DNA of 64,000 bases, taken from positions 2,770 to 66,769 of the forward strand of contig CAYNVN010000121.1 in assembly GCA_964400655.1 (NCBI GenBank). The letters run 5' to 3'. Both the position numbers and the translations under genes were made by a program. The notes under the pieces were generated by a model. That model did no database searches, was not told where the DNA came from, and saw only the letters and a program-made list of their open reading frames with translations. Positions 1,329 through 59,081 of this stretch are shown here, one piece after another. The DNA is from an uncultured Lentimicrobiaceae bacterium (lineage in GTDB: Bacteria; Bacteroidota; Bacteroidia; Bacteroidales; F082). Each line of letters begins with the position of its first letter. The stretch's first letter is position 1.

Positions 1329-1583
1329 TTAGTAACGATTTTCTCTTGGACGGGCTTCGTTAACACGTAGATTTCTACCATTAACTTCTCTGCCTTCCAG
1401 AGCTTCAACAGCCTGACGGCCTTCGTCGTCGTTTGGCATTTCAACAAAACCAAAACCTTTTGAGCGGTTGGTAGCTCTGTCGATAATAATTCTTGCGCTT
1501 GATACTTCGCCAAATTCGCTAAAGATTTGCTCTAAATCGTGGTCATCCATCGAGTAGGCAATGTTTCCAATGTAAATGTTCAT
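1329..1583 (-). CDS. RRM-domain RNA-binding protein (84 aa)
   Basis: RNP-2-like IYIGNI and RNP-1 KGFGFVEM motifs. The length and layout are typical of single-RRM bacterial Rbp proteins. Confidence 0.95.
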   Translation of the reverse strand: MNIYIGNIAYSMDDHDLEQIFSEFGEVSSARIIIDRATNRSKGFGFVEMPNDDEGRQAVEALEGREVNGRNLRVNEARPRENRY

Positions 1584-1888: not shown

Positions 1889-2818
1889 TTAAATTAGTTT
1901 TATAAAGCGTTGTATTTTATTGTTTACAAACGGGTTTAACGATAGTTTTTCAAAAACAACAATTACAACAAGAGCTACTGTTACTCCCAAACCGATATCT
2001 ACAAGGTAGTGGTGTCCTGAATAAACTGCCGAAAACCAAATACCAAGCATAAAGACCGCAAAAAACCAATTCATAATTTTTAAACCTTTTTTTATGCCAT
2101 AATAAAGTACAATAACCGGATAAGCGGCATGTAATGAGGGTATGGCAGCAAGCACATTGGCATTTTTGTTGTAAATGGATTGAAAAACCGGAATACCGGT
2201 AATGGCATCAAAACGGGCAAGTCCGGCACTGTTTCCAGGAACGCCCAAATGCAAATCAAAACCATAAAGTTTAACATACCACGGCGGTGCTGCAGGATAG
2301 ATATAATAAATAACAAACCCGACAAGATTAACCAAAAGAAAAACCAGCGAGAACTTTGTAAACAGATATTTATCTTTAAAATACAGATAAACGGCAAAGG
2401 CCAGCGGTATGGGCACCCAGTTAATATAAAACAATCCGGCCAGTATATCTAAAAACGGTTTACTATGGATATTAAAATACTCGTTGGGCGTGAGTATATG
2501 GCCGGTTTCGTTAATTCCGAACAGCAATTTTTCCAGTTCATAGGGTTGTTTTATATGCACCTGCGACACCTGGTAATTGGGTATTACCCGCATTGAATCA
2601 TATACAATCCAATAGATGATAAATATTGAAAATGCCAAAATAAACCTGCGTGTTTTTTCGGTAAAATAATATCCCGTAAGCCAAATTAAAACAAGATAAT
2701 AGTATTCGGCTCTTATTCCTCCGGTAAAATAACTCCACAACAAACAGGCAAACACAACAATGGCGTTAAGTGTAATGTTTTTATTTGTAAACCTTATGAA
2801 CTCTGTATTTTCAGCCAT
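1889..2818 (-). CDS. PAP2-superfamily membrane protein, Aur1/inositol-phosphorylceramide-synthase-like
   Basis: Polytopic membrane protein carrying IPSLHAAYP and YSGHHYLVDIGLG. These match the PSxH and HYxxD motifs of the Aur1/sphingomyelin-synthase-like PAP2 branch. It is the last gene of the inositol-lipid operon, and its ATG overlaps the upstream stop (TAATG). Confidence 0.7.
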   Translation of the reverse strand: MAENTEFIRFTNKNITLNAIVVFACLLWSYFTGGIRAEYYYLVLIWLTGYYFTEKTRRFILAFSIFIIYWIVYDSMRVIPNYQVSQVHIKQPYELEKLLFGINETGHILTPNEYFNIHSKPFLDILAGLFYINWVPIPLAFAVYLYFKDKYLFTKFSLVFLLVNLVGFVIYYIYPAAPPWYVKLYGFDLHLGVPGNSAGLARFDAITGIPVFQSIYNKNANVLAAIPSLHAAYPVIVLYYGIKKGLKIMNWFFAVFMLGIWFSAVYSGHHYLVDIGLGVTVALVVIVVFEKLSLNPFVNNKIQRFIKLI

Positions 2819-3354
2819 TACTTAAAATATAATTTTTCGTACACCTTATTATTGGTTTTTATGTCGTTACCAAACAATTCCACATATAAAACTTTTGGCC
2901 AGAAACCCGATTCGTCGGCATAAATATACAGATGATCAAGTTTTGAAAGACTATTGTTAATATTGGCATAAACCACCGCTTTAAATGGTGCTTCCTGACT
3001 AAGCCAAAAGGAGTGTTCTTCATCAGCCACAAGTTTTACCCTGTAATATTTTTCTTTATCTTTTACCTTTTCGCATTTAACCCCGTATGCATACCATTTT
3101 TCGATGGTACGTAATTCCATTTTTTGTCCCTGTTCTTCGTATCGTATCCAGTAAACATTGATGGGGTTCTCTTTGTTCAAATTTCCGTTATCATCAAAAT
3201 TTGCATCGTAAACAATGGTATTTTTGTTATGATTACGCTGGATATAAAAAAGCAATTTATCATTTTTTAACGGCACGGGATAACGGTCGTCATCCACACT
3301 CTTAAACGACATCGTAACAAACAGCAGCAATATTATGGGAGCAACTCTCTTCAT
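2818..3354 (-). CDS. Small secreted protein of unknown function (DUF4833-like, from memory)
   Basis: Signal peptide MKRVAPIILLLFVTMSF. About 178 aa, with no catalytic motif recognised. The DUF4833 assignment is recollection only. Confidence 0.5.
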   Translation of the reverse strand: MKRVAPIILLLFVTMSFKSVDDDRYPVPLKNDKLLFYIQRNHNKNTIVYDANFDDNGNLNKENPINVYWIRYEEQGQKMELRTIEKWYAYGVKCEKVKDKEKYYRVKLVADEEHSFWLSQEAPFKAVVYANINNSLSKLDHLYIYADESGFWPKVLYVELFGNDIKTNNKVYEKLYFK

Positions 3355-3355
3355 A

Positions 3356-4363
3356 TTACAACATGTTTTTATTTTTATACCATGTTAAAGTTTCGGTAAG
3401 CCCTTTTATTAAATCATATTCGGGATAAAAACCAAAATCGTTTACCAGCGGAGTGCTGTCGCACAACCAGTTTTTACAACTTATCTCTTTATATTTTTCG
3501 GTATTTAGCGTAGGCGGCACTTTGGTAATACAGGCAATTTTTTCGGTTAAAAAGGCTACAATTTTAACAATGGTGCGGGGAAAAATAATACGAATGGTTT
3601 TTTTTCTTAAAACTTTTTTAATGATAGTATTAAACTCCGTAGCCGTATAGTAATTAAGGTCGGAAACAAAGTACGACTTTCCGGCAACCGGGGATTCCAG
3701 CGCATCAAAAATCAATCTAACCAAATCTTTAACATAAATAAATGTTAGATGCTGCCGGGTTGTACCAATATAGGTTTCAACACCCTGTTTGATGTTTTTA
3801 TAAACGAGATAAAAATCTTTTTCGCGATATCCGTAAGCGCCCGTAGGTCTGAAGATTAGAAAAGGAAAACCGGACAATGATTTAATATACCGTTCGGCCT
3901 TTAGTTTGCTTTCGCCATACAAGGTAACCGGATGAGGGGTATCGGAATCCGATACCGGTTTTAAGGTTTCTTCGTCTCCCGGGCCATAAGCCGCCAAACT
4001 GCTCATAAAAACAAATTTTCCCGACAGCGAAGCTGTTTCCGTTAAAGCTTCTATCAGGTTTTTGGTGTATTGAAAATTTACTTTGTCAAAATCGCTTTTT
4101 ACACACGATTTTGTAATTCCGGCATTATGAATAACAAAGTCGAACTTTCCGAATGTTTTTTGATGTGTTGTAAACTTCTCAGCCAAAAGGGCTTTATCGG
4201 AAAGTTCCGTTTCGATAAAGTTAATACGGGGATCGGATAAATAGGTTCTGTTGCTGGAACTTCTCACCGCAGCAAAAACACGATAGTTTCGTTTCAAAGC
4301 CTCCTCCACAAGAAAGCTGCCGATAAAACCGCTGGCACCTGTTATTAAAATATTTTTCATCAT
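3356..4363 (-). CDS. NAD(P)-dependent epimerase/dehydratase-family (extended SDR) protein
   Basis: N-terminal Rossmann motif ITGASGFIGS and catalytic YGESK (YxxxK). Confidence 0.85.
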   Translation of the reverse strand: MMKNILITGASGFIGSFLVEEALKRNYRVFAAVRSSSNRTYLSDPRINFIETELSDKALLAEKFTTHQKTFGKFDFVIHNAGITKSCVKSDFDKVNFQYTKNLIEALTETASLSGKFVFMSSLAAYGPGDEETLKPVSDSDTPHPVTLYGESKLKAERYIKSLSGFPFLIFRPTGAYGYREKDFYLVYKNIKQGVETYIGTTRQHLTFIYVKDLVRLIFDALESPVAGKSYFVSDLNYYTATEFNTIIKKVLRKKTIRIIFPRTIVKIVAFLTEKIACITKVPPTLNTEKYKEISCKNWLCDSTPLVNDFGFYPEYDLIKGLTETLTWYKNKNML

Positions 4364-4365
4364 TC

Positions 4366-6915
4366 TTAAAAATCCATTTTAAACCTGGCTCTTATTCCGT
4401 ATTCAGCAACATTAGGATTATCTAAATAGGTAACCCGTTTAACAACATCGACCCTGAAAAATTTAAGAATATTGCCAATACCTGCACTAACTTCAATATA
4501 GGGTTTGTCTTTTAAGGTAAATGTAGTCGGGTTGCCGTAACTATCAGTCGGAAATTTCATTACTCCGGGTGTAACATCGGGGTTGTTTTGGTCGCTTACG
4601 CTGCCGTAAAGTCCTTTAAACGACACAATGGCTCTCCACTTTAACCTTTTAAACAACGGAATTTTATTAAAAATAAAGCCGTTAAAATGATGTTCGATAA
4701 AAAGGCTTGCATACTGATCACTTACAAATTCCAGAAAGTTCATCATATTGTAAGAGCGAATTTGGTACGAATAGGTTTGGTTGGCACGAGGTATTGCAAG
4801 TAACGGGAAGGGTACCTGTCCGAAAACTTTTCCGGCTTCAATTTCCGTATTGGTAAATCCTATTGGTGAAAGATAAAAACGTTTAAAGGCATTAAAAGTA
4901 AGTTTACTATAGGTATAATCTGAATTAAACACCCCTTCAAAACCCTGTGTATAGGATATTTGAAAGATGGGATATTTTGTAATAATGGGAACTCTGAAAT
5001 CCATTCCCTGATAAAACTTTTCGTTGGGTGCAAAACGTAAACGGGTAATAATTTCGCTGGTAACAATCTGGTTAATCGAATAATCATCGTAGTTAAAATA
5101 TAACGTTCCTCCGGGTTCCTGTTTCATATTTTTAAAGATGAGTGTGGTAGAAAACCCGTTTTTCCAATCTTTATAATGTTTAAGTTCAAACATTTCGTAG
5201 TAAAGTATTTTATCTGAAACTCCCCTTTTAAACGAAAGTAAAAAATTATCTTCATTTATAAACTGCATCTCCATACCGGGGAAATTGGTTTCAACCTGAT
5301 ACATGGCAGAAAAATAGTGTTTCGGATTTTCTTTTAACGGTTTTTTATTAAGCGACCATGTGCCTTTTAATGAATATTTAAATCTTTCATCTTTAAACCC
5401 GTACATCAGATAGCCCTCAAGTCTTAATCGTTTACTGAATTTCTCGCTGGTTCGTCCTCCAGCTCTTAAGCGAAATCCTTCCACATCATTAAAACTATAA
5501 AAAGTATTAACCGGTCCAACATCAACTTTTCCGAAATTCCAATAGCCTGCAACCAGCAGCATAACAATATCCATTGTTCGTTTAAATGCCGGCACATGTT
5601 GAACGCTGTCAACCATCGAGTAAATATTTTTTTCTTTATCCGAAAGGTCAACCAACCGGTTTTTACCCCAGAAAGCGGTATCACGTTCATTATATCCGGG
5701 TTCGCGAATTATATTTTCAACACCTCTGTAAACGGTATCGGGTCGTTTTTTATTAAACAGATAATTATCGTAATAAACCGTTTTTCTTCCGAACATTCCG
5801 ATACCTTTTTTACCAAGATTAAAATCAACCACAAGATTATCTCTGGTAAGCATCCAGCATTGGTTATTGATGTAAGAATACTCCTGAACGATTTTAAGGT
5901 CGTTAACAAAATTCAAATTAATGTCATCGGTTATTCTCATATCGGCTTTAATAACCGCATATCTTTTATCATTGGTAATGTATAAGTTACCAACAAAGGC
6001 AAAGTCCTGCCTGTTTCGAGGCTGAAAAGCAAGATTAATACAGCTATAGCCGTTAACATCAACCGTATCTAGAATAAAAAATTTGTAAATAACCGGAGAA
6101 ATAGTTGACAAAGGGCTGACAAACGGATTGGTTAACAGCGTAATATTATTATCGTAAATATCGATATCCTGATACATATTGTCAATCATAAAGCTGATTC
6201 CCTCATTATCAAGATAGTCGTGAAAGCCGATCATTTTAGTTCCGGAAACGTATTCTTTTTCACTTTTCGGGTTTTTACGATAATACTTTTTTGAGACTGT
6301 TTCTTTTAAGAATACCGGAAGGTACGGTTTGCCGTTTATTTTGGAAGTATCTACATAATTAAAAACAAATTGTAGTTTTTTAAATACCTTTTTACTTTTA
6401 AATTTTTCGGTAATATTATTCAGGTCAAACTCAACCTTTTCATACTTATTGTATTCGTAATAATCCAGACTTTCTTTACGGTTTAGGTTTTTGTTTTTAA
6501 TAACTTTTTTAATAAGGTCAACCGCAGGGTTTCCTTTGTTTCTATATCGTTTCTTTTTAGTTGATATAACCACTTCATTTAAATCGATACTTTTTGATTT
6601 CAGTTCAAAATTTACAACCTGATTTTTTTCCGGTATTATTTTTTTAGTCTGACTATTGTAACCCAAAAATGATGCCTGCAGCGAATCGGATGCCCATAAT
6701 GTTTCAATACTGTATTTTCCGTTATAGTCGGTTGTAGTGCCTATATTTTTTCCCACAAAAACAATATTTACAAAAGGTAAAGGCTCTTTGGTTCCTGCAT
6801 CAATCACCGTACCTCTTACACGGGTCATTTTTTGGGCACGGCTCTCTTTTGCCGGTATAACCGCCAATAAAGAAGCAATTAAAACGATATATATTATTTG
6901 TTTAATCCTCACCAC
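4366..6915 (-). CDS. Outer-membrane protein with an N-terminal carboxypeptidase-regulatory-like domain and a large DUF5686-like beta-rich region
   Basis: GTG start and signal peptide ...LIASLLAVIPAKESRAQ. VRGTVIDAGTKEPLPFVNIVFVGKNIGTTTDYNGKYSI is a typical CarboxypepD_reg fold signature. The C-terminal end, ...GIRARFKMDF, looks like a beta-barrel terminus. The DUF5686 name is from memory. Confidence 0.65.
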   Translation of the reverse strand: MVRIKQIIYIVLIASLLAVIPAKESRAQKMTRVRGTVIDAGTKEPLPFVNIVFVGKNIGTTTDYNGKYSIETLWASDSLQASFLGYNSQTKKIIPEKNQVVNFELKSKSIDLNEVVISTKKKRYRNKGNPAVDLIKKVIKNKNLNRKESLDYYEYNKYEKVEFDLNNITEKFKSKKVFKKLQFVFNYVDTSKINGKPYLPVFLKETVSKKYYRKNPKSEKEYVSGTKMIGFHDYLDNEGISFMIDNMYQDIDIYDNNITLLTNPFVSPLSTISPVIYKFFILDTVDVNGYSCINLAFQPRNRQDFAFVGNLYITNDKRYAVIKADMRITDDINLNFVNDLKIVQEYSYINNQCWMLTRDNLVVDFNLGKKGIGMFGRKTVYYDNYLFNKKRPDTVYRGVENIIREPGYNERDTAFWGKNRLVDLSDKEKNIYSMVDSVQHVPAFKRTMDIVMLLVAGYWNFGKVDVGPVNTFYSFNDVEGFRLRAGGRTSEKFSKRLRLEGYLMYGFKDERFKYSLKGTWSLNKKPLKENPKHYFSAMYQVETNFPGMEMQFINEDNFLLSFKRGVSDKILYYEMFELKHYKDWKNGFSTTLIFKNMKQEPGGTLYFNYDDYSINQIVTSEIITRLRFAPNEKFYQGMDFRVPIITKYPIFQISYTQGFEGVFNSDYTYSKLTFNAFKRFYLSPIGFTNTEIEAGKVFGQVPFPLLAIPRANQTYSYQIRSYNMMNFLEFVSDQYASLFIEHHFNGFIFNKIPLFKRLKWRAIVSFKGLYGSVSDQNNPDVTPGVMKFPTDSYGNPTTFTLKDKPYIEVSAGIGNILKFFRVDVVKRVTYLDNPNVAEYGIRARFKMDF

Positions 6916-6921
6916 TAATCC

Positions 6922-7317
6922 TTATTTAAAAACAAAATATTTATGTGTTAAAAAGTTAAACCCGATACCCACAATAATTGCAACTATTATTTTAGAGATA
7001 ATATACCGGCAGTTAAAAAATTCAACCAGCAAATAAAGGCCTGCGGTATTTAAAAAAATACTGACAGACCAAACCAATATGTATTTAAATGACTGGGCGG
7101 AAACCTTCCCGCCGGTTTTCATAAAAGTCCAGTTTCGTTCCATAACAAACGCGGTTATTCCTCCTGAAACCGCACCGATAACGGCCGAAAGGAGATACCA
7201 GATTTCCAGGGCCTCCGTAAAAAGAATAAATACGGCAAAATCAACCGATGTAGCAACAATAGCCACAACATTGTATCTGAAAAATGAAGTTAGTGTTTTC
7301 GGTTTTGTATTCACCAC
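6922..7317 (-). CDS. GtrA-family small membrane protein
   Basis: 131 aa with four predicted TM segments. FFRYNVVAIVATSVDFAVF and the C-terminal FNFLTHKYFVFK are typical of GtrA-like proteins. The GTG start directly follows the pgpA stop. Confidence 0.75.
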   Translation of the reverse strand: MVNTKPKTLTSFFRYNVVAIVATSVDFAVFILFTEALEIWYLLSAVIGAVSGGITAFVMERNWTFMKTGGKVSAQSFKYILVWSVSIFLNTAGLYLLVEFFNCRYIISKIIVAIIVGIGFNFLTHKYFVFK

Positions 7318-7794
7318 TTATAAAATTTCAAGATACATTACCAATTGCAAAACAGCAGCTGCATAAACTCCCGCCAACACATCATCCAGCATAACACTCC
7401 AGTCGGATTTAAGGTTATCGAGTTTTTTAATGCCAAAGGGTTTTACAATATCAAATATTCTAAACAAAATAAGGGCGTAGAGGTAGTACTGCCATTTAAG
7501 CGGAATGGCAACGGCCGCAATGCCCACTCCCACAATTTCATCAATAACAATTTTAGGCGAATCGTGTTCCCATATCCGGTGAACCTTTTTAATGGCATAA
7601 ACACCCCACAGCAACAAAATAATAACAGCAAAAAGATTAAGAACCGAAACACCTGTTTTTCCTACTCCCAAATGGTTCAGCAAAAGGTTTAACCCGTAAA
7701 AAAAGGTTATTCCAAGTACCGAACCTGCCGTACCCGGTGCAACAGGTGCATATCCTGTTCCTAATCCCGATGCTATTATTTTTGCTGTTTTCAT
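7318..7794 (-). CDS. pgpA: PgpA-type phosphatidylglycerophosphatase A family protein (probable phosphatidylinositol-phosphate phosphatase in this context)
   Basis: GLGTGYAPVAPGTAGSVLG, DEIVGV and RIFDIVKPFGIKKLD motifs of PgpA. Its start abuts the MIPS stop (7794/7795). Confidence 0.85.
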   Translation of the reverse strand: MKTAKIIASGLGTGYAPVAPGTAGSVLGITFFYGLNLLLNHLGVGKTGVSVLNLFAVIILLLWGVYAIKKVHRIWEHDSPKIVIDEIVGVGIAAVAIPLKWQYYLYALILFRIFDIVKPFGIKKLDNLKSDWSVMLDDVLAGVYAAAVLQLVMYLEIL

Positions 7795-9114
7795 TTACTC
7801 CTCTTCGTAATAATCAAGACCAAGGTGGTTAATCAGGGTTTCTCCCATCATATAGCGCAAAGTATTTTCAAATTTTATTTTTTGAAGGAAAATATCATGG
7901 ATGGGTTCCAGCCCTTTTTTGGTTTGCGGCGATTTAAAATAAAACGACAACCACTCCTGAATGCCTTTATATCCTGCTCGTTGAGCAAGGTCCATAAATA
8001 AAACCAAATCCAAAACTACCGGAGCGGCAAGAATGGAATCTTTACATAAGAAATTAACTTTGATTTGCATTTTATAATTGAGCCAGCCGAAAATATCGAT
8101 GTTATCCCAGCTCTCCTTATCGTCTCCCTTGGGAGGATAGTAATTAATCCTTACTTTATGATACATATCTTTATAAAGTTCAGGATACTTATCGGGCTCC
8201 AAAATACTGTCTAAAACACTTAATTTGGAAACCTCTTTGGTTTTAAACGAATCAACATCGTCAAGCACCTCGCCATCTCTGTTGCCCAGAATATTTGTTG
8301 AGAACCAGCCGTCAATACCAATTAAACGCGATTTTAACCCCGGTCCCAAAATGGTTTTCATCAGCGTTTGGCCTGTTTTAAAGTCCTTACCAGCAATGGG
8401 AATATTAAGTTTATTAGCCATATCAATTAAAGCGGGAATATCAACTGTAAGGTTAGGTGCACCGTTAACAAACGGAACCCCGCTTTTTAATGCGGCATAA
8501 GCATAAATCATGCTGGGTGAAATGGAAGGATGATTTTCTTTTAAACCTTTTTCAAAATTTTCTATTGTTTGATGAACTTCGGTTTCCCGGGTATAAACTT
8601 CGGTGGAAGCACACCAAATCATAACCATCCTGCTACAATTATTGGCCGATTTAAAATATTCGATATCCTCCATTACTTCCAGGGCCAATTCCATTTTGGT
8701 ATTTTCTATTTTCACATTCTCGCCATGTATGTTTTTAACATATGCCGAATCGAAAACTGCCGGCATCGGTTCAATGGCACTCAGCTCATCTTTTACAGAG
8801 TCAAGCAAATCTTTATCTAAAACTCCTGCGTTTAAAGCAGCCTCATAAGCATTTTCTTTAAAAATATCCCAACCTCCGAAAACCAGATTCTCAACAGGTG
8901 CAAGAGGAACAAAGTCGTTTATTGCAGGATTTCTGTTTTCGGTCCGTTTTCCAAGTCTGATTTTTCCCATCTGCGAAATAGACCCAACAGGTTTGCCAAT
9001 TCCTTTTTTGGTGGCAAAAACTCCTGCCATAAAAGTGGTGGATACCGCACCGATACCCGGAATAAGAACACCCAGCTTACCGTCGGGGGCTTTAATGCTG
9101 TTTTGTGATTTCAT
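7795..9114 (-). CDS. ino1: myo-inositol-1-phosphate synthase
   Basis: 439 aa with an N-terminal NAD-binding GVLIPGIGAVSTTFMAG. The central SPSMIYAYAALKSGVPFVNGAPN block is characteristic of the MIPS family. Confidence 0.9.
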   Translation of the reverse strand: MKSQNSIKAPDGKLGVLIPGIGAVSTTFMAGVFATKKGIGKPVGSISQMGKIRLGKRTENRNPAINDFVPLAPVENLVFGGWDIFKENAYEAALNAGVLDKDLLDSVKDELSAIEPMPAVFDSAYVKNIHGENVKIENTKMELALEVMEDIEYFKSANNCSRMVMIWCASTEVYTRETEVHQTIENFEKGLKENHPSISPSMIYAYAALKSGVPFVNGAPNLTVDIPALIDMANKLNIPIAGKDFKTGQTLMKTILGPGLKSRLIGIDGWFSTNILGNRDGEVLDDVDSFKTKEVSKLSVLDSILEPDKYPELYKDMYHKVRINYYPPKGDDKESWDNIDIFGWLNYKMQIKVNFLCKDSILAAPVVLDLVLFMDLAQRAGYKGIQEWLSFYFKSPQTKKGLEPIHDIFLQKIKFENTLRYMMGETLINHLGLDYYEEE

Positions 9115-9151
9115 TTTTATTAAATTTAATAATTACTATATATCTTAACCT

Positions 9152-9838
9152 CTACATTTTATCGTAACAATGATGCAATCGCTGAAAAGCGGTATAGTTT
9201 GTTAATACAGCCATAATAAATATGGGAAATGTAAAAACCGATATGTTTTCAAAAAGCGGAAAAGGCAAAAAATCAACCGAAAACTTAAAATTGCCAAAAA
9301 CCATCGACACAATACCATACAATATTGCGGTAATACCAATGGTAAGCACTCTTTCAGGCCGCTGCATCATACCTACTTTACACTCCACACCCAATCCTTC
9401 AGCCCGGGCTCTTACATAACTTACCATAATGGAACCTATCATGGCAATAAAAGCGAATACGGAACTTAAAAGATAATCGTAACTAACAAGGTAATAAGCA
9501 ATACCAAAAAACATAACCATTTCGCTGTACCGGTCTAATACCGAATCGTATAAAGCACCGAATTTGGTTGTTTTTCCGGTTCGGCGGGCAAGCTGACCGT
9601 CAAGCATATCAAATAGTCCTGCAAATAAAGTAACAGCCCCAAACCACATTATATAATGGTAATTTCCTCTCTCACCCGCTTCGGCACCGTAAACAAGAAC
9701 GGCAGCCGAAATCATAGTAATAAATAAACCAATTGTTGTAATCCCGTTGGGTGTTACACCGGTTTTAATTAACACACCGATAAACGGATCAAGTAATTTA
9801 TATGCCCTTATTTTGATTTTTTCCCAGTTAAATTCCAT
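9152..9838 (-). CDS. CDP-alcohol phosphatidyltransferase (probable phosphatidylinositol-phosphate synthase)
   Basis: Complete DGx2ARx8Gx3Dx3D motif in DMLDGQLARRTGKTTKFGALYDSVLD. Polytopic membrane protein and first gene of the operon. Confidence 0.9.
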   Translation of the reverse strand: MEFNWEKIKIRAYKLLDPFIGVLIKTGVTPNGITTIGLFITMISAAVLVYGAEAGERGNYHYIMWFGAVTLFAGLFDMLDGQLARRTGKTTKFGALYDSVLDRYSEMVMFFGIAYYLVSYDYLLSSVFAFIAMIGSIMVSYVRARAEGLGVECKVGMMQRPERVLTIGITAILYGIVSMVFGNFKFSVDFLPFPLFENISVFTFPIFIMAVLTNYTAFQRLHHCYDKM

Positions 9839-9859: not shown

Positions 9860-9879
9860 GTTAGTTTATATTTACTAAC
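9860..9879. promoter_or_regulatory. Operator-like palindrome, copy 3 (GTTAGTTTATATTTACTAAC), in the 5' leader of the inositol-lipid operon
   Basis: Shares the GTTAGT...ACTAAC arms with the other two copies. Lies 21 nt upstream of the ATG at 9838. Confidence 0.55.
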
Positions 9880-9960: not shown

Positions 9961-9984
9961 CAAAGTTAGTTAATATAAACTAAC
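9961..9984. promoter_or_regulatory. Operator-like palindrome, copy 2 (GTTAGTTAATATAAACTAAC, 9965-9984), overlapping a minus-strand TAACTTTG -7 box (9961-9968)
   Basis: The reverse complement of 9961-9968 is TAACTTTG, which fits the Bacteroidota TAnnTTTG -7 consensus. It is oriented toward the operon starting at 9838. Confidence 0.6.
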
Positions 9985-10286: not shown

Positions 10287-10310
10287 GTTAGTTAATATTA
10301 ACTAACTTTG
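10287..10310. promoter_or_regulatory. Operator palindrome, copy 1 (perfect 20-mer GTTAGTTAATATTAACTAAC, 10287-10306), overlapping a plus-strand TAACTTTG -7 box (10303-10310)
   Basis: Perfect self-complementary 20-mer. The -7 box lies about 40 nt upstream of the TetR ATG (10351). Confidence 0.65.
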
Positions 10311-10350: not shown

Positions 10351-10929
10351 ATGCAAACAGAAAGACAAACACAAATAATGGAGTCGGCACTTGAGCTTAT
10401 TGCCGAAAAAGGTATTCAGGGATTAACCATTAAAAATTTATCGAAAAAAATTGGCATTTCGGAACCGGCCATATATCGCCACTTTGAAAACAAAAGCAGC
10501 ATCTTACTTACCATTCTGGATAACTTTAAACAGATGGCTGCCATGTTATCGGCCATAATACCCACTGTTGGAGAAACCGCATTTGATAAAATTTCATTTA
10601 TCTTTTCAAAGATTACCCAACTTTTTATTGAGTCGCCATCTTATGTATCGGTAATTTTTTCGGAAGAGATTTTTAAAAACGATTTACAACTAAAAAATAA
10701 AATTACCGAAGTTCTTGACCAAAACGAGCAAACCATCGAGAACATCATTATTACCGGCCAGGAAAACGGCGATATACGAACAGACATCAGCAGCAAAAAT
10801 TTAGCACTTATTGTTATGGGTTCGTTACGATTTCTTGTTAAACAATGGGATATCAAGGAACGCCGGAAAAACCTTAAACAAGAAGGCGATCAACTGTTAA
10901 ACAGTTTAAAACTCATTATTAAAAAATAA
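10351..10929 (+). CDS. TetR/AcrR-family transcriptional regulator
   Basis: N-terminal HTH: IMESALELIAEKGIQGLTIKNLSKKIGISEPAIYRHFENK. 192 aa. Confidence 0.9.
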   Translation: MQTERQTQIMESALELIAEKGIQGLTIKNLSKKIGISEPAIYRHFENKSSILLTILDNFKQMAAMLSAIIPTVGETAFDKISFIFSKITQLFIESPSYVSVIFSEEIFKNDLQLKNKITEVLDQNEQTIENIIITGQENGDIRTDISSKNLALIVMGSLRFLVKQWDIKERRKNLKQEGDQLLNSLKLIIKK

Positions 10930-52635: not shown

Positions 52636-55314
52636 TTAGTAATCTCTGAAATCTTTCTTTTTATTAAGTTTCAGATCCTGAAGAATAGCAGCCTTCACAT
52701 TTATGGAAAAATTCCAACTTTTGCGTGGCCCGAAAGGAATAACATTGAAGCTCATTTCCCAGCAATGCAGATCGCGATGTATGTTAAAAGAAGTAAGAGA
52801 AATCTCATTATCGGTAAAATCCCAACCCGTTCGAAAAGTAACTTTCCATTTTGGTGTAATATTAACCTGGCCGGAAAGCCCAAGCGTTTGAACAATCCTG
52901 TTTGTTGGTATTTTTTCGTAATTGATATACGCTATATTGGTGGTATAACTAAAATTATAGCTCAGATTAATGGACCAGGGAATGTTCCAATCGATATATT
53001 CGCTATGGTCGTTTAACGTTCCCACATCTTCACGGACATATTTCTCCTCTGTAATTATTTCACTTTTTTCCTCCTCATTTTTCCCCTTATCCTTTTTCTT
53101 TTTAAAATCTTTATCGCTTAGCCGCAGGCTGAGACTAAGTGCCCATGCAGTATTGGATTTTCTGAACAGCCTTTTGTTTTTTGTCCACTCAAGAGTATTG
53201 GTACGCCTGCCGGCCGAGTCTAACGCATACGGGTCCCACAGCGAGCTGTATTTCAAATCAATATTTTTCCAAAGGGTTGTTCTTCCACTCATACTAAGGT
53301 ACGACATATTTACCGAATCCTTGGCAAGATCATAATTACCATTAATGGTAAAGCTCTTTATCAGGGTAATTTTTTTCATACCTGTGACAGTATCTTTGCG
53401 TGATCTCACCTTAATTTCCAGGTTATTTCCAAAATTAAAACCTATTTGTCCCGACTTATACTGAGGCGGCGAACCATATAAAAACCCCTGATACTTTGAA
53501 TAGGAATGCTCTTCGCCTTCGCCATCAATATAAGAGTCGTAATATCCCCATGTTGAGTTTCCGAAATCCGGCACATAATTAAATGTTATGGAGGGCGTAA
53601 AAACATGACGAACAGCCTTTAACGGCCCTTTTTTAAATCGCAGCATTCCGTAAACCTTGGTGGAAAGGCTGCTGCTTACGTTAAAATCGAACGTATTGTT
53701 AAACCCCGCTATGGTATCTTTGGCAACATATCCCACGATGGTATCGTTTCCGTTAATAATGGTATCGTTAACCCAATATTGATCAACCTGTTGCGAATAC
53801 ATTCTGTCGGTAACGGTTAGCGAGTTACTCCATGTAAAATATTTAAACAGTTTTACGGGGAGTCTGACAGGTAACTTATGTATTACTCCGTTTTGCATAT
53901 TGCGTTGATAAGCCTGCTCGGTAAAAACCAGCGAATCGTAGGTATTAACCACATTTTTCCCGTTAACCGAATAGGTGATACTCAAATCTTCGTAGAATCG
54001 TTTTTTACCGGTTCTGTTCTTTTTCCGCAAAGGATAAAAAGTATTTACATTAAAAGTAAGCTCCGGCAAAGTAATCTGCACCACATGAGTTTTGGTGTTT
54101 TGCCGGTGACTTCCGTTGGCGGTTAAATAATATTTACCTGCCCAGCTGGTTTGGTATGAAACGCTCGACTGGAACTCGTTGGAAAGATAGTCGTTAAGAT
54201 CAACAGAATTATACTTAATAAAATTGGAGGTTACAATGTTAACATTGGCATTGAACCTGCTGTTAGGGCGGGCCTTTGCATCTTGTGAGTGCGTCCACCG
54301 TATTCTGAAGTCATTGCTTTTTTGATAGTCGGGCGAATACTTATCGCTTATAATATTAACCGCATATTGCACTGCAAACGAGCCACTGAATTTATACCGT
54401 TTTTTATAACGAAAAGTCGGTTTTATGGCCCAGCTTCCTCTTGAATAGATATCGCCAATCATTTTCAGGTCCATATAATCGTTTATGTGCCAATAGTACC
54501 CGCCTCCTTCGAGGTAAAACCCGCGATTGGCCGATTCACCATAACTTGGAATCACAATTCCCGACCGCTGGCGACTGTTGTTTGGAAACATCCCGAAAGG
54601 TATGGCCAGCGGTGTTGGCACACCTTCTATTTCCATGTAGGCAGGCCCCGTTACAATTTTGTTATCGGGAATAACCCTCGCTTTTTTAAACTTAAACCTG
54701 AAATGGGGATGATCTTCAAGGTTACAGGTTGTATATGAACCATGCAGAAGGTTGATTGAATTATCAGGTAATTTTTTAACCCGTCCTCCGGCCAAAAACC
54801 CCTGTGCATCCTCGGTAAAGATGCTGTAAATATAGCCTTTGCCCGAATCAAAATTATACTCAATGGTATCGGCTTTAAAGGTTTGCCCGCCCTGTGTAAA
54901 TACAGGCCTGCCCTGCTGCTTTCCCGTTGAATCGATAACCCCGTATGCCACAACGGTATTATTGTTAAAGTTAACCTCAATGCGGGCTGCTTTCAAATCA
55001 ATATCTTCATATTTAATTTCTGCATTACCATACAAAAAAACCTTTTTACTTAAAATATCCTGCACAATGGAGTCGGTGGCCGTTCGTTCAACCTTTGCAT
55101 CAATTTTGGAGTGAGTTTGCGTAAAATTAGTACTGTCAATTAAAACGGAATCCTTTTTTATGATTGCCGTATCTCCGGCAGGATTAAGGGTATCGGCAAC
55201 AATTTCCGGAAATCCATACACCATTTTTGCCGAAACACCGTTACCATACCAGGTTATCGTTAGTAATAACCAAAGCCATGTTAATAATTTACCTGAAGAT
55301 GACCTTTTCGTCAA
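52636..55314 (-). CDS. LptD/OstA-like outer-membrane LPS-assembly protein (Bacteroidota type)
   Basis: About 890-920 aa and beta-rich, with an OstA-like N-terminal region. The 5' end is uncertain. I prefer the TTG at 55314, which gives signal peptide TKRSSSGKLLTWLWLLLTITWYGNGVSA. The maximal ORF (55404) would overlap the divergent amidase start. Confidence 0.65.
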   Translation of the reverse strand: MTKRSSSGKLLTWLWLLLTITWYGNGVSAKMVYGFPEIVADTLNPAGDTAIIKKDSVLIDSTNFTQTHSKIDAKVERTATDSIVQDILSKKVFLYGNAEIKYEDIDLKAARIEVNFNNNTVVAYGVIDSTGKQQGRPVFTQGGQTFKADTIEYNFDSGKGYIYSIFTEDAQGFLAGGRVKKLPDNSINLLHGSYTTCNLEDHPHFRFKFKKARVIPDNKIVTGPAYMEIEGVPTPLAIPFGMFPNNSRQRSGIVIPSYGESANRGFYLEGGGYYWHINDYMDLKMIGDIYSRGSWAIKPTFRYKKRYKFSGSFAVQYAVNIISDKYSPDYQKSNDFRIRWTHSQDAKARPNSRFNANVNIVTSNFIKYNSVDLNDYLSNEFQSSVSYQTSWAGKYYLTANGSHRQNTKTHVVQITLPELTFNVNTFYPLRKKNRTGKKRFYEDLSITYSVNGKNVVNTYDSLVFTEQAYQRNMQNGVIHKLPVRLPVKLFKYFTWSNSLTVTDRMYSQQVDQYWVNDTIINGNDTIVGYVAKDTIAGFNNTFDFNVSSSLSTKVYGMLRFKKGPLKAVRHVFTPSITFNYVPDFGNSTWGYYDSYIDGEGEEHSYSKYQGFLYGSPPQYKSGQIGFNFGNNLEIKVRSRKDTVTGMKKITLIKSFTINGNYDLAKDSVNMSYLSMSGRTTLWKNIDLKYSSLWDPYALDSAGRRTNTLEWTKNKRLFRKSNTAWALSLSLRLSDKDFKKKKDKGKNEEEKSEIITEEKYVREDVGTLNDHSEYIDWNIPWSINLSYNFSYTTNIAYINYEKIPTNRIVQTLGLSGQVNITPKWKVTFRTGWDFTDNEISLTSFNIHRDLHCWEMSFNVIPFGPRKSWNFSINVKAAILQDLKLNKKKDFRDY

Positions 55315-55389
55315 TTGGATTGATTTACTTTTGTTAATGGCAAATACCTTTATTTGTGCAAATATAATTTCTAATTTGATACCATTAAT

Positions 55390-56802
55390 TTGAAACGGCT
55401 GCAATATATTGTTATTATCTTTTTGGTGACTTTTTCTTTGGAGTTGTTATGGGGTCAAACAACGGATAACAAAGGGAAAAAGATTACCACCATTGTTATT
55501 GATGCCGGACACGGGGGAAGAGACCCGGGCGCTTTGGGCAAACACTCGCGTGAAAAAGATATTACCCTTGCCGTGGCCCTGAAAACAGGGAGGTATATCA
55601 AAGCCAATCTTCCGGATGTTAAGGTAATTTACACCCGTAACCGGGACAGGTTTGTGGAACTAAAAACCCGCGGACAGATAGCCAATAAAAACAATGCCGA
55701 CCTGTTTATTTCAATACATTGCAATTCCAACAATTCACACGCTCCTTATGGTGCCGAAACATACGTACTGGGAAGCGACGACAAACGAAGCAACCGCAAC
55801 ATGAAAGTAGCCATGCTCGAAAATGCCGCCATCCTGCTTGAAGACAACGCTAAAGACAACTACAACGGGTTTGATCCCAATTCACCCGAATCATACATCA
55901 TCTTTTCGTTAAAACAAAACGATTACAAACAGGAGCAAAGCCTTGTGCTGGCACAAAAAATTCAAAGCCAGTTTAAAAACCGGGCAGGAAGAAAAGACAG
56001 GGGTGTTCATCAGGCGGGATTTTTGGTACTGGCAGGCACCTACATGCCTTCGGTACTGGTTGAGCTGGGATACCTTAGTAACTATACCGAAGAAAAATTC
56101 CTGTTGTCGGACAAAGGTCAATCCTATCTTGCTTCGGCCATTTACCGTGCGGTAAAATCGTACAAACACGATTACGAACTGGAAAACAATGCCGGCAGCA
56201 GTGCTGCAAATAGAACAACGGCTAAAAAAGATAAACCGGCTAAAACGTCACCATCCCCCAAACCAAAACCTGCCACCTCCGGCATTGAATACAGGGTGCA
56301 ATTTTTTACTTCGGCAAAAAAGATTCCGCTTTCCGATAAACGTTTTGGCTCCATTCCCGAAAAGTCGGTTTATTATCATAATGGTTTGTACAAGTACACA
56401 TCCGGTCATTTTAGCAATCAACAGGATGCCGAGACGCGGCGAAAAACCTTAAAAAACAAAGGCTACAACTCTTCATGGATAGTGCTGATGAAAAACGGTA
56501 AACGATATACCGGAAACCCGCCGCCACCACCCGAAACATCCGGAACAAAAAACAAACTTACCACCCATACCGTTGAATACAGGGTTCAGTTTTACACTTC
56601 ACCGAGTAAAATTCCGATAACAAGTTCAAAGTTCAAAGGAGTTGAGCAGGTTGACGTATATTATCATAACGGACTTTACAAATATACTTCGGGGCATTAC
56701 CCCTCGTTAAACCGGGCGGCAGCGCAGCAGTCAAAACTCCGTAAAAAAGGATTTACAGGAGCATTTGTTATAAAAATGAAAAACGGCAAAAGGTTGAATT
56801 AA
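55390..56802 (+). CDS. N-acetylmuramoyl-L-alanine amidase (Amidase_3) with two C-terminal SPOR domains
   Basis: IVIDAGHGGRDPGA and ISIHCNS motifs. Two SPOR-like repeats each begin EYRVQF(F/Y)TS...YYHNGLYKYTSGH. TTG start, the only start codon in the frame. Confidence 0.9.
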   Translation: MKRLQYIVIIFLVTFSLELLWGQTTDNKGKKITTIVIDAGHGGRDPGALGKHSREKDITLAVALKTGRYIKANLPDVKVIYTRNRDRFVELKTRGQIANKNNADLFISIHCNSNNSHAPYGAETYVLGSDDKRSNRNMKVAMLENAAILLEDNAKDNYNGFDPNSPESYIIFSLKQNDYKQEQSLVLAQKIQSQFKNRAGRKDRGVHQAGFLVLAGTYMPSVLVELGYLSNYTEEKFLLSDKGQSYLASAIYRAVKSYKHDYELENNAGSSAANRTTAKKDKPAKTSPSPKPKPATSGIEYRVQFFTSAKKIPLSDKRFGSIPEKSVYYHNGLYKYTSGHFSNQQDAETRRKTLKNKGYNSSWIVLMKNGKRYTGNPPPPPETSGTKNKLTTHTVEYRVQFYTSPSKIPITSSKFKGVEQVDVYYHNGLYKYTSGHYPSLNRAAAQQSKLRKKGFTGAFVIKMKNGKRLN

Positions 56803-56979: not shown

Positions 56980-57927
56980 GTGAAAAGATCGAAACCATAT
57001 TTAATAGGATTTACTTTTATTTTGGCCATCGTAATATTTGTTTGGGGGTTCAACTTTCTTAAAGGACGCGACCTGTTTAAAAAACAGGAATTTTTGTTTG
57101 CCCGATACAAAATGGTAAACGGCCTGGTTGCAGCCAAGCCGGTTTATATAAACGGATTACAGGTGGGACAGGTAAGCAGGCTCTATTTTGCCCCCGATAT
57201 GTCGGGCGACATTATCGTGGAAATGGTTATTCAAAGCAAATTCCCCATCCCCAAAAACAGTGTTGCACATATTTTTAGTGCCGACCTGATGGGCTCCAAA
57301 TCCATTGAATTACATTTGGGCGACTCAAAAGAGATTGCCCAAAGCGGCGATACTTTATTAACCAGCGTAGAAGGCTCCATAATGGAGTCGGTCAACAAAC
57401 AGGTGGCACCGCTTAAAGCCAAAGCCGAAGTATTGATGAGCTCGGTTGATACCCTGATTGCAGCATTTAACACCGTATTAAACAAAAACACAACCGAAAA
57501 CCTGAAAGCAAGCATCAAAGATATTACCACTACTTTCAGGAACCTTTCAAACACTACCAGCAACATTGACACCCTTGTGGAGGTAGAATCAAACCGACTG
57601 GCCAATATTCTTGCACATGTTGATTCGCTTACCGGTACGCTAAGTGATAACCGCGAAGACCTAAGTAAAATTATTATCAACTTCAGAAGCATTAGCGATT
57701 CGCTGGCAAAAACCGATTTTTTAAGCATTATCCAAAAAGCCGACTCGTCCATAAACAGTTTAAACCAAATTCTTGCTAAAATCAACGAAGGACAAGGAAC
57801 GGCCGGCATGCTGATGAATAACGATTCGCTATACCGCGAACTGGATAAATCAGCCGAAGAATTAAATAAGTTATTAAAAGATATTAGGGAAAACCCTAAA
57901 CGGTATGTAAAATTTTCGCTGTTTTAA
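56980..57927 (+). CDS. MlaD/MCE-family protein
   Basis: GTG start, N-terminal TM helix, MCE domain ...VNGLVAAKPVYINGLQVGQVSRLYF..., and a long helical C-terminus. Confidence 0.85.
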   Translation: MKRSKPYLIGFTFILAIVIFVWGFNFLKGRDLFKKQEFLFARYKMVNGLVAAKPVYINGLQVGQVSRLYFAPDMSGDIIVEMVIQSKFPIPKNSVAHIFSADLMGSKSIELHLGDSKEIAQSGDTLLTSVEGSIMESVNKQVAPLKAKAEVLMSSVDTLIAAFNTVLNKNTTENLKASIKDITTTFRNLSNTTSNIDTLVEVESNRLANILAHVDSLTGTLSDNREDLSKIIINFRSISDSLAKTDFLSIIQKADSSINSLNQILAKINEGQGTAGMLMNNDSLYRELDKSAEELNKLLKDIRENPKRYVKFSLF

Positions 57928-57956: not shown

Positions 57957-59081
57957 CTAAAATTTGTACTGATAGATTCTGTACTTTTTGTACATCTCGG
58001 CATTAATATTTTTTAAAGCGCGGTTCATCATGATATTATCTTCCAATATCCAGCTTGCTTCTCCCGTATAGTAGCCTCTTTTGGTTCCGTTATGAAATGT
58101 TTTTGCATACATACAGGCATCGATACCGGTTTTACGATAATTCTCCAAAATACCAAGTGTTAATACTCTTACACTTTTTACTTTTTTCTTAAAATTGATA
58201 AGTTTCAGGAAATTAAACGGAAAAAGTTTACCGTTTCTTATCTTTATAAATATTTCGTTAATATTCGGTATTGTGGCCGAAAAAGCCACGGGTTTTCCGT
58301 TATCCTCAACCATAAATACCAAATCGGGGGTAGTAATCATTTTTAACTCTTTTACCAAAGCATCAAACTCTTCCACGGTCATGGGAATAAATCCCCAATT
58401 ATCTTTCCATGCTTCATTGTATATGTACCGAATTTTAGGAATTTCCTCCTTCATATTATTAAAATCAACCTGCCGGATGATGATCCCCTGCGATTTCAGC
58501 CGTTCCTCAATTTTGGCACTCAAACTCAACATCCGCTCCGGAATCTCCTTATGACGCAGATACCAGGCAAACAAATCCATTCGTTTTTCCAGTCCGTAAT
58601 CAAGGAAAAGGCTATCGTAATACGCTTTGTTGTGGGTCATCATAACAAACGGTGGTGTATCAAAACCTTCTACCAACGTACCACATGGATCGTTGGTTGA
58701 CGGATTCATGGGGCCGTACATACCATCCACCCCTTTATCTTTTAGCCAGGCAACGGCCGTATCAAATAACGCTTTGGCAACCTCTTTATCTTCAACAGAT
58801 TCAAAAAATCCGAAAAAACCATAATTCTCTTTCCAGTGGTCAACATAGGCCTGATTGGTAATGGCCGCTATCCTACCAACAACCTCCCCGTTACCATTAG
58901 TTGCAATAAAATACTCTGCTTCACCATGCTTAAAAAAAGGATTCTTCTTTTTATCCAGTGTCTCTTTGGTCATAAGCCTGAGTTCAGGAACATAATTCTT
59001 ATCATCTTTATAATGATTGTAAGGAAAATCAATAAATTTCTTTATCCCCTTTTTATCATTAACCTTTTGTACTGTTATCAT
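57957..59081 (-). CDS. GNAT-like N-acyltransferase-family protein of unknown specificity (374 aa)
   Basis: The N-terminus MITVQKVNDKKGIKKFIDFPYNHYKDDKNYVPEL resembles a widespread ~370-aa family annotated as GNAT N-acetyltransferase (recollection). Divergent from spt. Confidence 0.45.
   Translation of the reverse strand: MITVQKVNDKKGIKKFIDFPYNHYKDDKNYVPELRLMTKETLDKKKNPFFKHGEAEYFIATNGNGEVVGRIAAITNQAYVDHWKENYGFFGFFESVEDKEVAKALFDTAVAWLKDKGVDGMYGPMNPSTNDPCGTLVEGFDTPPFVMMTHNKAYYDSLFLDYGLEKRMDLFAWYLRHKEIPERMLSLSAKIEERLKSQGIIIRQVDFNNMKEEIPKIRYIYNEAWKDNWGFIPMTVEEFDALVKELKMITTPDLVFMVEDNGKPVAFSATIPNINEIFIKIRNGKLFPFNFLKLINFKKKVKSVRVLTLGILENYRKTGIDACMYAKTFHNGTKRGYYTGEASWILEDNIMMNRALKNINAEMYKKYRIYQYKF

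Follow-up and report, generated by a model that had tools for sequence, protein, structure and literature searches.

DUF5686 and DUF4833 proteins as candidates for lipid export in the inositol-lipid operons of Bacteroidota

In Bacteroides thetaiotaomicron, the genes BT_1522-BT_1526 form an inositol-lipid cluster in which BT_1525 has the role of a phosphatidylinositol phosphate (PIP) phosphatase and BT_1524 carries a Gtr-A motif (Heaver et al. 2022, PMC9246714). The same study mentions, in a single sentence, that a carboxypeptidase-regulatory-like protein, a homologue of BT_1527, occurs in the vicinity of both inositol-lipid routes. For the sphingolipid pathway, the genes for serine palmitoyltransferase (Spt), for the bacterial ceramide synthase (bCerS) and also for ceramide reductase (CerR) have been reported to cluster frequently. 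CerR was described as an NDUFA9-like NAD-binding enzyme, which was reported to be periplasmic in Caulobacter and whose deletion in B. fragilis led to the accumulation of keto-dihydroceramide. According to a 2024 JBC study of the spatial organisation of the pathway, no flippase or transporter for bacterial sphingolipids is known. In this study, we analysed a stretch of 64,000 nucleotides from an uncultured Lentimicrobiaceae bacterium (assembly GCA_964400655.1, contig CAYNVN010000121.1, hereafter the window), in which an inositol-lipid operon also encodes a DUF5686 protein and a DUF4833 protein. Based on comparative genomics and structure prediction, we put forward, tentatively, that these two proteins are a module that brings lipid to the outer membrane.

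The operon consists of eight tightly packed open reading frames (ORFs) on the minus strand, at 1889-9838 in the ORF listing of the window, and was identified using Pfam and NCBIfam as, in the order of transcription, PIP synthase (PIPS), myo-inositol-phosphate synthase (MIPS), PgpA, GtrA, DUF5686, a short-chain dehydrogenase/reductase (SDR), DUF4833 and a PAP2-type phosphoinositol dihydroceramide (IPC) synthase (IPCS). Its products would be phosphatidylinositol (PI) and phosphoinositol dihydroceramide (PI-DHC). It shares with BT_1522-BT_1526 the MIPS, the PgpA-type PIP phosphatase, the GtrA-motif protein and, as candidates, the PIP synthase and the PAP2-type PI-DHC synthase, and the MIPS, PgpA and GtrA genes are contiguous in the window. 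The internal order of the B. thetaiotaomicron cluster, MIPS-PgpA-GtrA-...-PIPS-...-IPCS, is the one seen in Cytophagales loci. The differences are that the window and most environmental Bacteroidota have DUF5686 and DUF4833 inside the operon, that environmental clusters often include the whole Spt-bCerS-SDR module, and that the PIPS and IPCS of the window score below the NCBIfam equivalog cut-offs. For PIPS, NF052561 (PIPSynBT1523) was by far the top match with 311 bits against a cut-off of 350, while NF052609 (PhinosDhcerSyn) was the sole match for IPCS, with 328.9 bits against 480.

Conservation of the pair with inositol-lipid genes

An earlier note on this DNA had described four uncharacterised genes between PgpA and the PAP2_3 gene and had read them together as a single route from the inner to the outer membrane. 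The ORF listing agrees with this placement, the Pfam matches of all four proteins lie above the curated cut-offs for the domains that had been named, and the GASGFIGS and YGESK motifs of the SDR as well as the GTG starts of GtrA and DUF5686 are present. The spacing is as tight as had been described: 0 nt for PgpA/GtrA, 6 nt for GtrA/DUF5686, 2 nt for DUF5686/SDR and 1 nt for SDR/DUF4833, with the stop of DUF4833 overlapping the start of IPCS by 1 nt (-1 nt). Co-transcription with the lipid enzymes, which had been proposed on these grounds, is supported. Terminator-like sites within the operon showed no excess over shuffled sequence (10 vs 8.1), and the only strong terminator-like hairpin of the region, a 13-pair stem at 1282-1310, lies beyond the gene that is 3' of the operon. 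The four genes are not one unit but belong to three different layers, i.e., the SDR, GtrA, and DUF5686 together with DUF4833.

Linkage was analysed in two scans. The first used a DUF4833 alignment as the query against one genome per GTDB species and yielded 80 loci (L numbers below), while the second was anchored on IPCS in the JGI metagenomes and is hence independent of DUF4833. Both scans comprise the 80 best matches to the window's protein, a sampling in which environmental relatives are favoured and gut Bacteroides are under-sampled, and some contigs are found in both sets (e.g., L005/L085 and L041/L088). The loci were probed by tblastn with the window proteins, and the counts for the first scan refer to those 49 loci whose flanks reached 8 kb or more upstream and 1.5 kb or more downstream (Table 1). 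The taxa of the first scan were Bacteroidales, including Lentimicrobiaceae and Draconibacterium, Flavobacteriales, Cytophagales (Arcicella, Flectobacillus and Emticicia), Chitinophagales (Chitinophagaceae, Saprospiraceae and Lewinellaceae) and one Pedobacter metagenome-assembled genome. DUF5686 and DUF4833 remain with the inositol genes in at least five orders of Bacteroidota despite changes in gene order. The linkage beyond close relatives, on which the earlier note had depended, recurs in 160 loci from several orders with rearranged gene order, which is far above chance.

In 64 of 72 loci, DUF4833 was followed by IPCS at a distance of no more than 900 nt, mostly with a gap of -1 to about 50 nt. 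In the independent metagenome set, DUF5686 lay upstream of IPCS in 35 of 36 loci that had 4.5 kb of flank or more, and DUF4833 did so in 43 of 53 that had 1.5 kb or more. The order in Cytophagales and Chitinophagales, MIPS-PgpA-GtrA-DUF5686-PIPS-DUF4833-IPCS, equals that of B. thetaiotaomicron with the two DUF genes added, and one locus, L161, is a compact, B. thetaiotaomicron-like PgpA-GtrA-PIPS-IPCS cluster. A gene for an FA_hydroxylase protein (PF04116, 206-215 aa) is placed between DUF4833 and IPCS in clusters of Chitinophagales and Saprospiraceae (L054, L063, L074, L077-L080, L082, L083 and many of L109-L164; e.g., L079:10535-11182). A further full supercluster, L169, came from a soil metagenome in a sampling of divergent DUF4833 sequences. 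There, IPCS is followed by a gene for a 462-aa protein with no Pfam match and then by a Glyco_tranf_2_5 gene (L169:10278-12584); these neighbours hint that some lineages glycosylate the inositol lipid further.

Already known are the pathway and, among the four genes, the SDR type and GtrA. As far as our literature search shows, the supercluster form, the strict association of DUF4833 with IPCS and the fusions of PIPS with DUF4833 described below are new, as are the occurrence of the DUF5686-DUF4833 pair beside other lipid genes and the Omp85-like prediction for DUF5686. The earlier description of all four genes as uncharacterised holds for DUF5686 and DUF4833, both unstudied, and fails for the SDR, almost certainly a known ceramide-pathway enzyme, and for GtrA, which corresponds to the published BT_1524.

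Predicted structure and proposed role of DUF5686 and DUF4833

The DUF5686 protein has a signal peptide that ends in SRA|QK, followed by a CarboxypepD_reg domain (CarbopepD_reg_2, 76.2 bits) and a large beta-rich region that matches PF18939 with 213.8 bits against a cut-off of 39.2, over profile positions 2-657 of 669. The sequence match of its N-terminal domain is only to the periplasmic N-terminal extension of SusC, RagA and the TonB-linked receptors (TIGR04056 positions 2-89; the N-termini of SusC/RagA in the PDB), and a PDB sequence search with DUF5686 found nothing besides this domain. A TonB-dependent receptor was considered and rejected, as Pfam detected neither a Plug domain nor a TonB_dep_Rec barrel. 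An AF2 model that was built with 32 orthologues was mediocre (pLDDT 65.3, pTM 0.43) and consisted of a confident N-terminal sandwich, a beta/helical middle part (about residues 130-455) and about 16 C-terminal strands. Using Foldseek, this model gave 79 matches against the PDB at E<=1e-3, and the top 50 were nearly all Omp85-family barrels (probability 1.0, target-normalised TM of up to 0.54), including TamA (4c00, E=7.6e-7), Toc75, Sam50 and BamA, the last with the proteins of B. thetaiotaomicron and Flavobacterium johnsoniae among others. DUF5686 ends in an invariant Phe, and many polar residues are invariant across 25-85% identity. An aromatic residue or Phe at the C-terminus is usual in outer-membrane barrels. 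In the literature, a member of the family was listed in a proteome table of Tannerella forsythia outer-membrane vesicles (OMVs) and was classed as an outer-membrane protein; beyond this table, our literature search found no mention of DUF5686. We therefore assign DUF5686 as an outer-membrane barrel with good confidence and, on the basis of the predicted model, as an Omp85-like one with moderate confidence.

DUF4833 is a predicted exported, periplasmic protein. The window's protein matches PF16117 over the full length of the profile (positions 1-138 of 138, 133 bits against a cut-off of 23.1), and its AF2 model (pLDDT 84.7, pTM 0.76) has an N-terminal signal helix and an all-beta domain with about 11 strands. 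Foldseek found no match for this model in the PDB at E<0.1 (the lowest E was 0.13), a PDB sequence search found none either, and DUF4833 was unmentioned in the literature searched. Members of 34-93% identity share the positions LFYIQR..N.NT and VYW.RY.E and a few Gly/Pro residues. The family comprises 1609 representatives (50% clustering, E<=1e-3), and about two-thirds of the best 150 of them are nearest to cluster-type references; a homologue search with a diverse DUF4833 profile returned only members of the same clade among the matches listed. In several loci, PIPS and DUF4833 are fused in frame (L063:9167-10465, L072:9182-10459 and L074:2393-3694; ORFs of about 430-440 aa), in which Pfam finds CDP-OH_P_transf and then DUF4833, with a basic linker and one extra hydrophobic segment between them. 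Such fusions are also present in an independent protein library (P0374, 441 aa, and the N-truncated P0303 and P0343). The extra segment suggests that the DUF4833 domain is on the periplasmic side. In L074 it ends in a signal-peptidase-like A-N-A|Q, so that the domain may still be released.

Moreover, the pair is found outside inositol-lipid clusters. Three independent clusters (L052:5876-15636, L173:3-2416 and L176:390-5130) have the order DUF5686-DUF4833-LysE-acyltransferase, the last being an OlsA-like Acyltransf_2. In L052, the cluster is preceded by an extracytoplasmic function (ECF) sigma factor and FecR pair and continues with an Acetyltransf_5 (OlsB/GlsB-type) gene and then a TonB-type receptor with a FecR_C N-terminus. 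With aminolipid acyltransferases as its neighbours, the pair looks like a module for the handling of lipids and not for inositol-specific chemistry. In L167/L168 (4418-8567), DUF4833 adjoins a PAP2_C (sphingomyelin-synthase-like) gene and a gene for a true Omp85 (366 aa, barrel-only, PF01103, with the RGY loop motif); PhyH and a classical SDR are close by. The locus is possibly a further phosphosphingolipid cluster that follows the same accessory logic. Further contexts were a tight DUF4833-PhyH-adh_short operon (L171:8001-10110) and an adh_short-DUF4833 pair in Emticicia (L075:9167-10528). The recurring theme is membrane-lipid synthesis together with an Omp85-type or DUF5686 barrel. The neighbourhood of DUF4833 and TonB-type receptors in L050 and L053 was considered as well and was rejected as meaningful, as the genes are on opposite strands.

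According to the proposed mechanism, MIPS, PIP synthase and the PgpA-type phosphatase would produce PI at the cytoplasmic face, while Spt, bCerS and the SDR would produce the dihydroceramide that is supplied to IPC synthase. In PAP2-type transferases, among them Aur1 and the sphingomyelin synthases, the active site is exoplasmic, so IPC formation is expected at the periplasmic face of the inner membrane. There, a DUF4833 protein, either secreted or tethered to PIPS, would be located at the outer face of the inner membrane beside PIP synthase and IPC synthase. DUF5686 would be the beta-barrel in the outer membrane, probably of an Omp85-like kind, whose N-terminal domain is periplasmic. In our preferred reading, the two together may remove the completed inositol lipid (or a co-product) from the inner membrane and place it in the outer one. 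An outer-membrane barrel that is encoded in a lipid operon suggests such a transfer of the product, and the combination of an outer-membrane protein and a small secreted protein fits the envelope-directed, post-synthetic role that had already been proposed in the earlier note. Gene content, linkage, the fusions and the predicted localisation are results of this analysis; a role in transport is put forward here with weak to moderate confidence. Additionally, BT_1527 is probably a DUF5686-type protein; if so, its occurrence near both biosynthetic routes would favour a post-synthetic role.

The sphingolipids and inositol lipids of Bacteroidota reach the outer membrane and the OMVs and affect host immunity and metabolism, and their transport route is an acknowledged gap. 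DUF5686 and DUF4833 offer two concrete and widely conserved candidates for the export step. A broader version, which we consider doubtful, is that the pair is a two-part envelope machine of Bacteroidota, in which an Omp85-like barrel and a periplasmic lipid binder with a new fold deliver non-lipopolysaccharide lipids to the outer membrane and OMVs. If it were true, the cargo would be inositol sphingolipids and PI in this operon and aminolipids or other phosphosphingolipids in the paralogous clusters, and the pair would be the missing transporter for bacterial sphingolipids.

Several observations weigh against an export module. Nine metagenome loci of the PIPS-FA_hydroxylase-IPCS type retain DUF5686 without DUF4833, and L064 and L070 retain DUF4833 without DUF5686 inside 10 kb; because loci with only one of the pair exist, DUF5686 and DUF4833 are not strictly interdependent. 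Some DUF4833 paralogues are found in unrelated contexts, e.g., with HxlR, or alone. The DUF5686 model is poor (pLDDT 65, pTM 0.43), and in the 392 C-terminal residues there was no sequence-level match to Omp85 (PF01103) in Pfam at E<=10. At this threshold, both halves of the protein matched only DUF5686 itself, and hhalign of DUF5686 profiles with E. coli TamA and with the Omp85 of L167 gave probabilities below 1%. Deletion of BT_1524, the counterpart of GtrA, caused no change in inositol lipids on thin-layer chromatography, and B. thetaiotaomicron makes PI-DHC with BT_1522-1526 alone, with no DUF4833 between these genes (PMC9246714). The pair is thus dispensable for synthesis and possibly also for export in that organism.

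Of the other explanations, the one that survives best, although we regard it as unlikely, is that DUF4833 would assist or regulate the membrane head-group transferases, IPC synthase and PIP synthase, as a subunit in the periplasm, by analogy with Kei1, and that DUF5686 would have a separate role. At the inner membrane, the task of such a subunit would be to offer ceramide or PI or to take away diacylglycerol. This would agree with the position of DUF4833 just upstream of IPCS in the 64 of 72 loci, with reading frames that overlap or nearly do so, with its fusion in several lineages to the C-terminus of PIP synthase through the extra transmembrane (TM) segment, and with its place next to a second PAP2-superfamily gene, the PAP2_C of L167. 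Furthermore, the residues of DUF4833 with the strongest conservation (QRN.N.NT, VYW.RY) have polar or aromatic side chains, as would be expected for a ligand or partner site. However, the B. thetaiotaomicron IPC synthase functions without a DUF4833 in its cluster, the nine PIPS-FA_hydroxylase-IPCS loci lack one, and the DUF4833-DUF5686 pair occurs in clusters that have no PAP2 enzyme (L052, L173 and L176). The A-N-A|Q site of the L074 fusion would also make the domain a possibly released rather than a tethered one.

An improbable alternative is a role of the pair in tailoring or turnover, in which an enzyme activity in the outer membrane or periplasm would alter or break down the finished lipid, e.g., by deacylation, acyl transfer or trimming of the head group. 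The FA_hydroxylase gene inserted between DUF4833 and IPCS in Chitinophagales and Saprospiraceae, the operons of DUF4833 with a PhyH dioxygenase and/or a classical SDR (L171 and L075) and the invariant polar residues of DUF5686 could be read in this way. Searches of Pfam, NCBIfam and PDB sequences, however, recognised no catalytic family or motif in either protein, DUF4833 has no fold relative among solved enzymes, and the barrel-like fold of DUF5686 points to a transport or insertion protein.

The reverse direction of transport appears slightly more improbable still. Here, DUF5686 as an outer-membrane channel and DUF4833 as a periplasmic binder would import a precursor, e.g., inositol or an inositol phosphate, a sphingoid base, or a lipid from outside the cell. 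The N-terminal domain that DUF5686 has in common with SusC and the TonB-linked receptors, the ECF sigma/FecR pair and the TonB-type receptor that flank L052, as in uptake loci with trans-envelope signalling, and the DUF4833 paralogues beside TonB-type receptors would all be compatible with uptake. On the other hand, DUF5686 has no match to a Plug or a TonB-receptor barrel, de novo synthesis of inositol phosphate is encoded in the operon, which makes import unneeded, and DUF4833 of L050 and L053 has its TonB-type neighbours on the other strand and hence not in one operon with it. TonB-type receptors are very common in Bacteroidota, and their adjacency to DUF4833 may therefore be due to chance.

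The SDR and GtrA genes as separate layers

The SDR has Pfam matches to Epimerase (117.7 bits) and also to 3Beta_HSD, NmrA and NAD_binding_10. GASGFIGS at residues 9-16 and YGESK are features of an NAD(P)-binding extended SDR, and the protein has neither a signal peptide nor a TM segment, its Rossmann motif starting from residue 9. In the related loci, it follows the ceramide genes. A bCerS-like gene is located directly 5' of the SDR orthologue (37-72% identity) in 37 of 42 genome loci; in four of the remaining five, the SDR follows DUF5686, as in the window. Among the 29 metagenome loci with enough flank, Spt was found upstream of IPCS in 22, bCerS in 22 and the SDR in 21, in the order Spt-bCerS-SDR. 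Conversely, Spt, bCerS and the SDR are all missing from 14 complete inositol clusters, among them every Arcicella and Flectobacillus locus, in which GtrA, DUF5686 and DUF4833 are retained. Because the SDR travels with Spt-bCerS and is missing from clusters that keep both DUF genes, we count it as part of the ceramide module, separate from the inositol/envelope module. In the first three related chromosomes (L001-L003), additional genes separate DUF5686 and the SDR: a GNAT-like gene alone (375 aa) in L001, a 394-aa class I/II aminotransferase and then a 374-aa GNAT-like protein in L002, and a 394-aa class I/II aminotransferase followed by two shorter ORFs, which replace the GNAT-like gene, in L003. 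Taken together, the three give the order Spt-bCerS-SDR.

The window has its own Spt and bCerS-like genes, which are divergent from each other and lie 51 kb from the operon. The window's Spt is 52.7% identical to the Spt inside the L002 cluster. The bCerS-like protein is 27.9% identical over its full length to the 374-aa protein of the L002 cluster, which is the type that other Bacteroidales have in the cluster, and 42-61% identical to the gene that lies between Spt and the SDR in loci of Chitinophagales and Saprospiraceae. Two bCerS-like lineages exist, and both are present in L009. Around Spt and bCerS in the window are an LptD_2 gene (52636-55404, minus strand), an MlaD-domain gene (56980-57927, plus strand) and a weak FadL-like outer-membrane gene (60492-61955, minus strand), so that the ceramide genes are surrounded by genes for lipid transport in the envelope.

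We infer, strongly and from genomic context, that the SDR is a CerR-type ceramide reductase. An NCBIfam scan of the SDR had no CerR model among its matches, and the top match was HpnA with 75.9 bits, far under the cut-off. Against this assignment, the SDR has no signal peptide, unlike the Caulobacter CerR that was reported to be periplasmic; this difference is not necessarily disqualifying. A reductase of the BT_0972 (KDSR) type was rejected for the SDR, since BT_0972 was described as a classical SDR identified by its similarity to Tsc10/FVT1, and the window's SDR is an extended one that travels with bCerS. The earlier suggestion that the SDR modifies the head group or the sphingoid base is therefore retained for the sphingoid base, under the ceramide reductase reading, and abandoned for the head group. 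Compared with the described pathway (Caulobacter CCNA_01220, CCNA_01212 and CCNA_01222; B. fragilis BF9343_4218 and BF9343_4240), the relatives of the window share the three-gene neighbourhood and its components: an Spt that is PLP-dependent, a GNAT-like protein with a length of about 374 aa, and an extended SDR that binds NAD. The difference is that the SDR of the window is 51 kb from Spt/bCerS and embedded in the inositol operon.

GtrA matched the Pfam family GtrA_DPMS_TM (PF04138) at residues 14-130 with 72.7 bits against a cut-off of 26.1. Its hydropathy profile shows six overlapping peaks (residues 16-59 and 80-125), which are compatible with the four TM helices usual in this family and do not resolve them individually. 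In related loci, its gene always comes after PgpA, and it is the positional equivalent of BT_1524, a published member of the cluster. A flippase function of GtrA, whether its substrate were PI or some related lipid, is no more than speculation. One inner-to-outer-membrane route of all four genes, with the SDR as an epimerase or redox enzyme of the inositol head group, is highly improbable: the tight co-transcription of the four genes and the generic similarity of the SDR to sugar epimerases/dehydratases speak for it, but the SDR co-varies with Spt-bCerS and not with the inositol genes or the DUF genes, is missing from the complete clusters of Arcicella and Flectobacillus and has no export signal.

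Layout of the operon and comparison with known systems

Table 1. Genes of the inositol-lipid operon and related genes of the window, with the number of DUF4833-anchored loci in which the gene was detected
Gene or product	Position	Strand	Size and assignment	DUF4833-anchored loci
PIP synthase (PIPS; CDP-alcohol phosphatidyltransferase), operon gene 1	9152-9838	-	Pfam CDP-OH_P_transf 68.4 bits	45/49
Myo-inositol-phosphate synthase (MIPS)	7795-9114	-	Pfam NAD_binding_5 343.6 bits, Inos-1-P_synth 107.9 bits	44/49
PgpA-family phosphatase, equivalent of the BT_1525 PIP phosphatase	7318-7794	-	Pfam PgpA 133.7 bits	44/49
GtrA-family small membrane protein	6922-7317	-	131 aa, GTG start	40/49
DUF5686 protein	4366-6915	-	849 aa, GTG start	43/49, and one fragmented copy in L031
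Extended SDR, inferred CerR-type ceramide reductase	3356-4363	-	335 aa	
DUF4833 protein	2818-3354	-	178 aa	
PAP2_3 enzyme of the IPC synthase type (IPCS), final operon gene	1889-2818	-	Pfam PAP2_3 82.4 bits	44/49
TetR-family regulator, divergent from the operon	10351-10929	+	Pfam TetR_N and TetR_C_4	
bCerS-like GNAT protein, divergent from Spt	57957-59081	-	374 aa, weak Acetyltransf_1 match	
Serine palmitoyltransferase (Spt)	59222-60409	+	NCBIfam NF047600 SerpalmtaseCFB 635 bits vs 640 cut-off	

The 512-nt gap between the TetR gene and the first gene of the operon contains three 20-bp palindromes, GTTAGTTWATATWAACTAAC, at 9860-9879, 9965-9984 and 10287-10306, which occur nowhere else in the 64 kb (0.01 expected by chance). 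Homologues of this TetR regulator adjoin the cluster in L004, L041/L088, L048 and L051. The palindromes are probably operators through which TetR would control the inositol-lipid operon. A sigma-70 promoter scan was uninformative (30 sites vs 34 expected). On the other side, 305 nt past the operon, a gene for an 84-aa RRM-type RNA-binding protein (1329-1583, minus strand) ends at the 1282-1310 hairpin.

Among the systems that are known outside the Bacteroidota inositol-lipid clusters, two can be compared by analogy only. In yeast, the PAP2-type IPC synthase Aur1 works with Kei1, a small, obligatory and separately encoded partner. Unlike DUF4833, Kei1 is a membrane protein; the two are unrelated, and DUF4833 is soluble, periplasmic and also found without any PAP2 enzyme. 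With LptD-LptE, the pair shares the combination of a large outer-membrane barrel and a small beta-rich partner for a dedicated outer-membrane lipid. However, no relation in sequence or fold was found, the window has its own LptD_2 gene, and a plug in the outer membrane would be hard to reconcile with a DUF4833 that is fused to an inner-membrane enzyme.

The Omp85 superfamily (BamA, TamA with TamB, Sam50 and Toc75) has in common with DUF5686 the predicted C-terminal barrel and the C-terminal aromatic residue. The difference lies at the N-terminus, where no POTRA domain was found in the DUF5686 protein; in its place are the CarboxypepD_reg domain and, over about 330 residues, a beta/helical region. 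TamA-TamB has been linked to the traffic of lipids and proteins in the envelope. Finally, the comparison with B. thetaiotaomicron shows that the environmental cluster is the full ceramide-plus-inositol supercluster and that the B. thetaiotaomicron cluster is a reduced form of it. The carriers of DUF5686 and DUF4833 include cultured organisms, e.g., the type strains of Arcicella and Flectobacillus.

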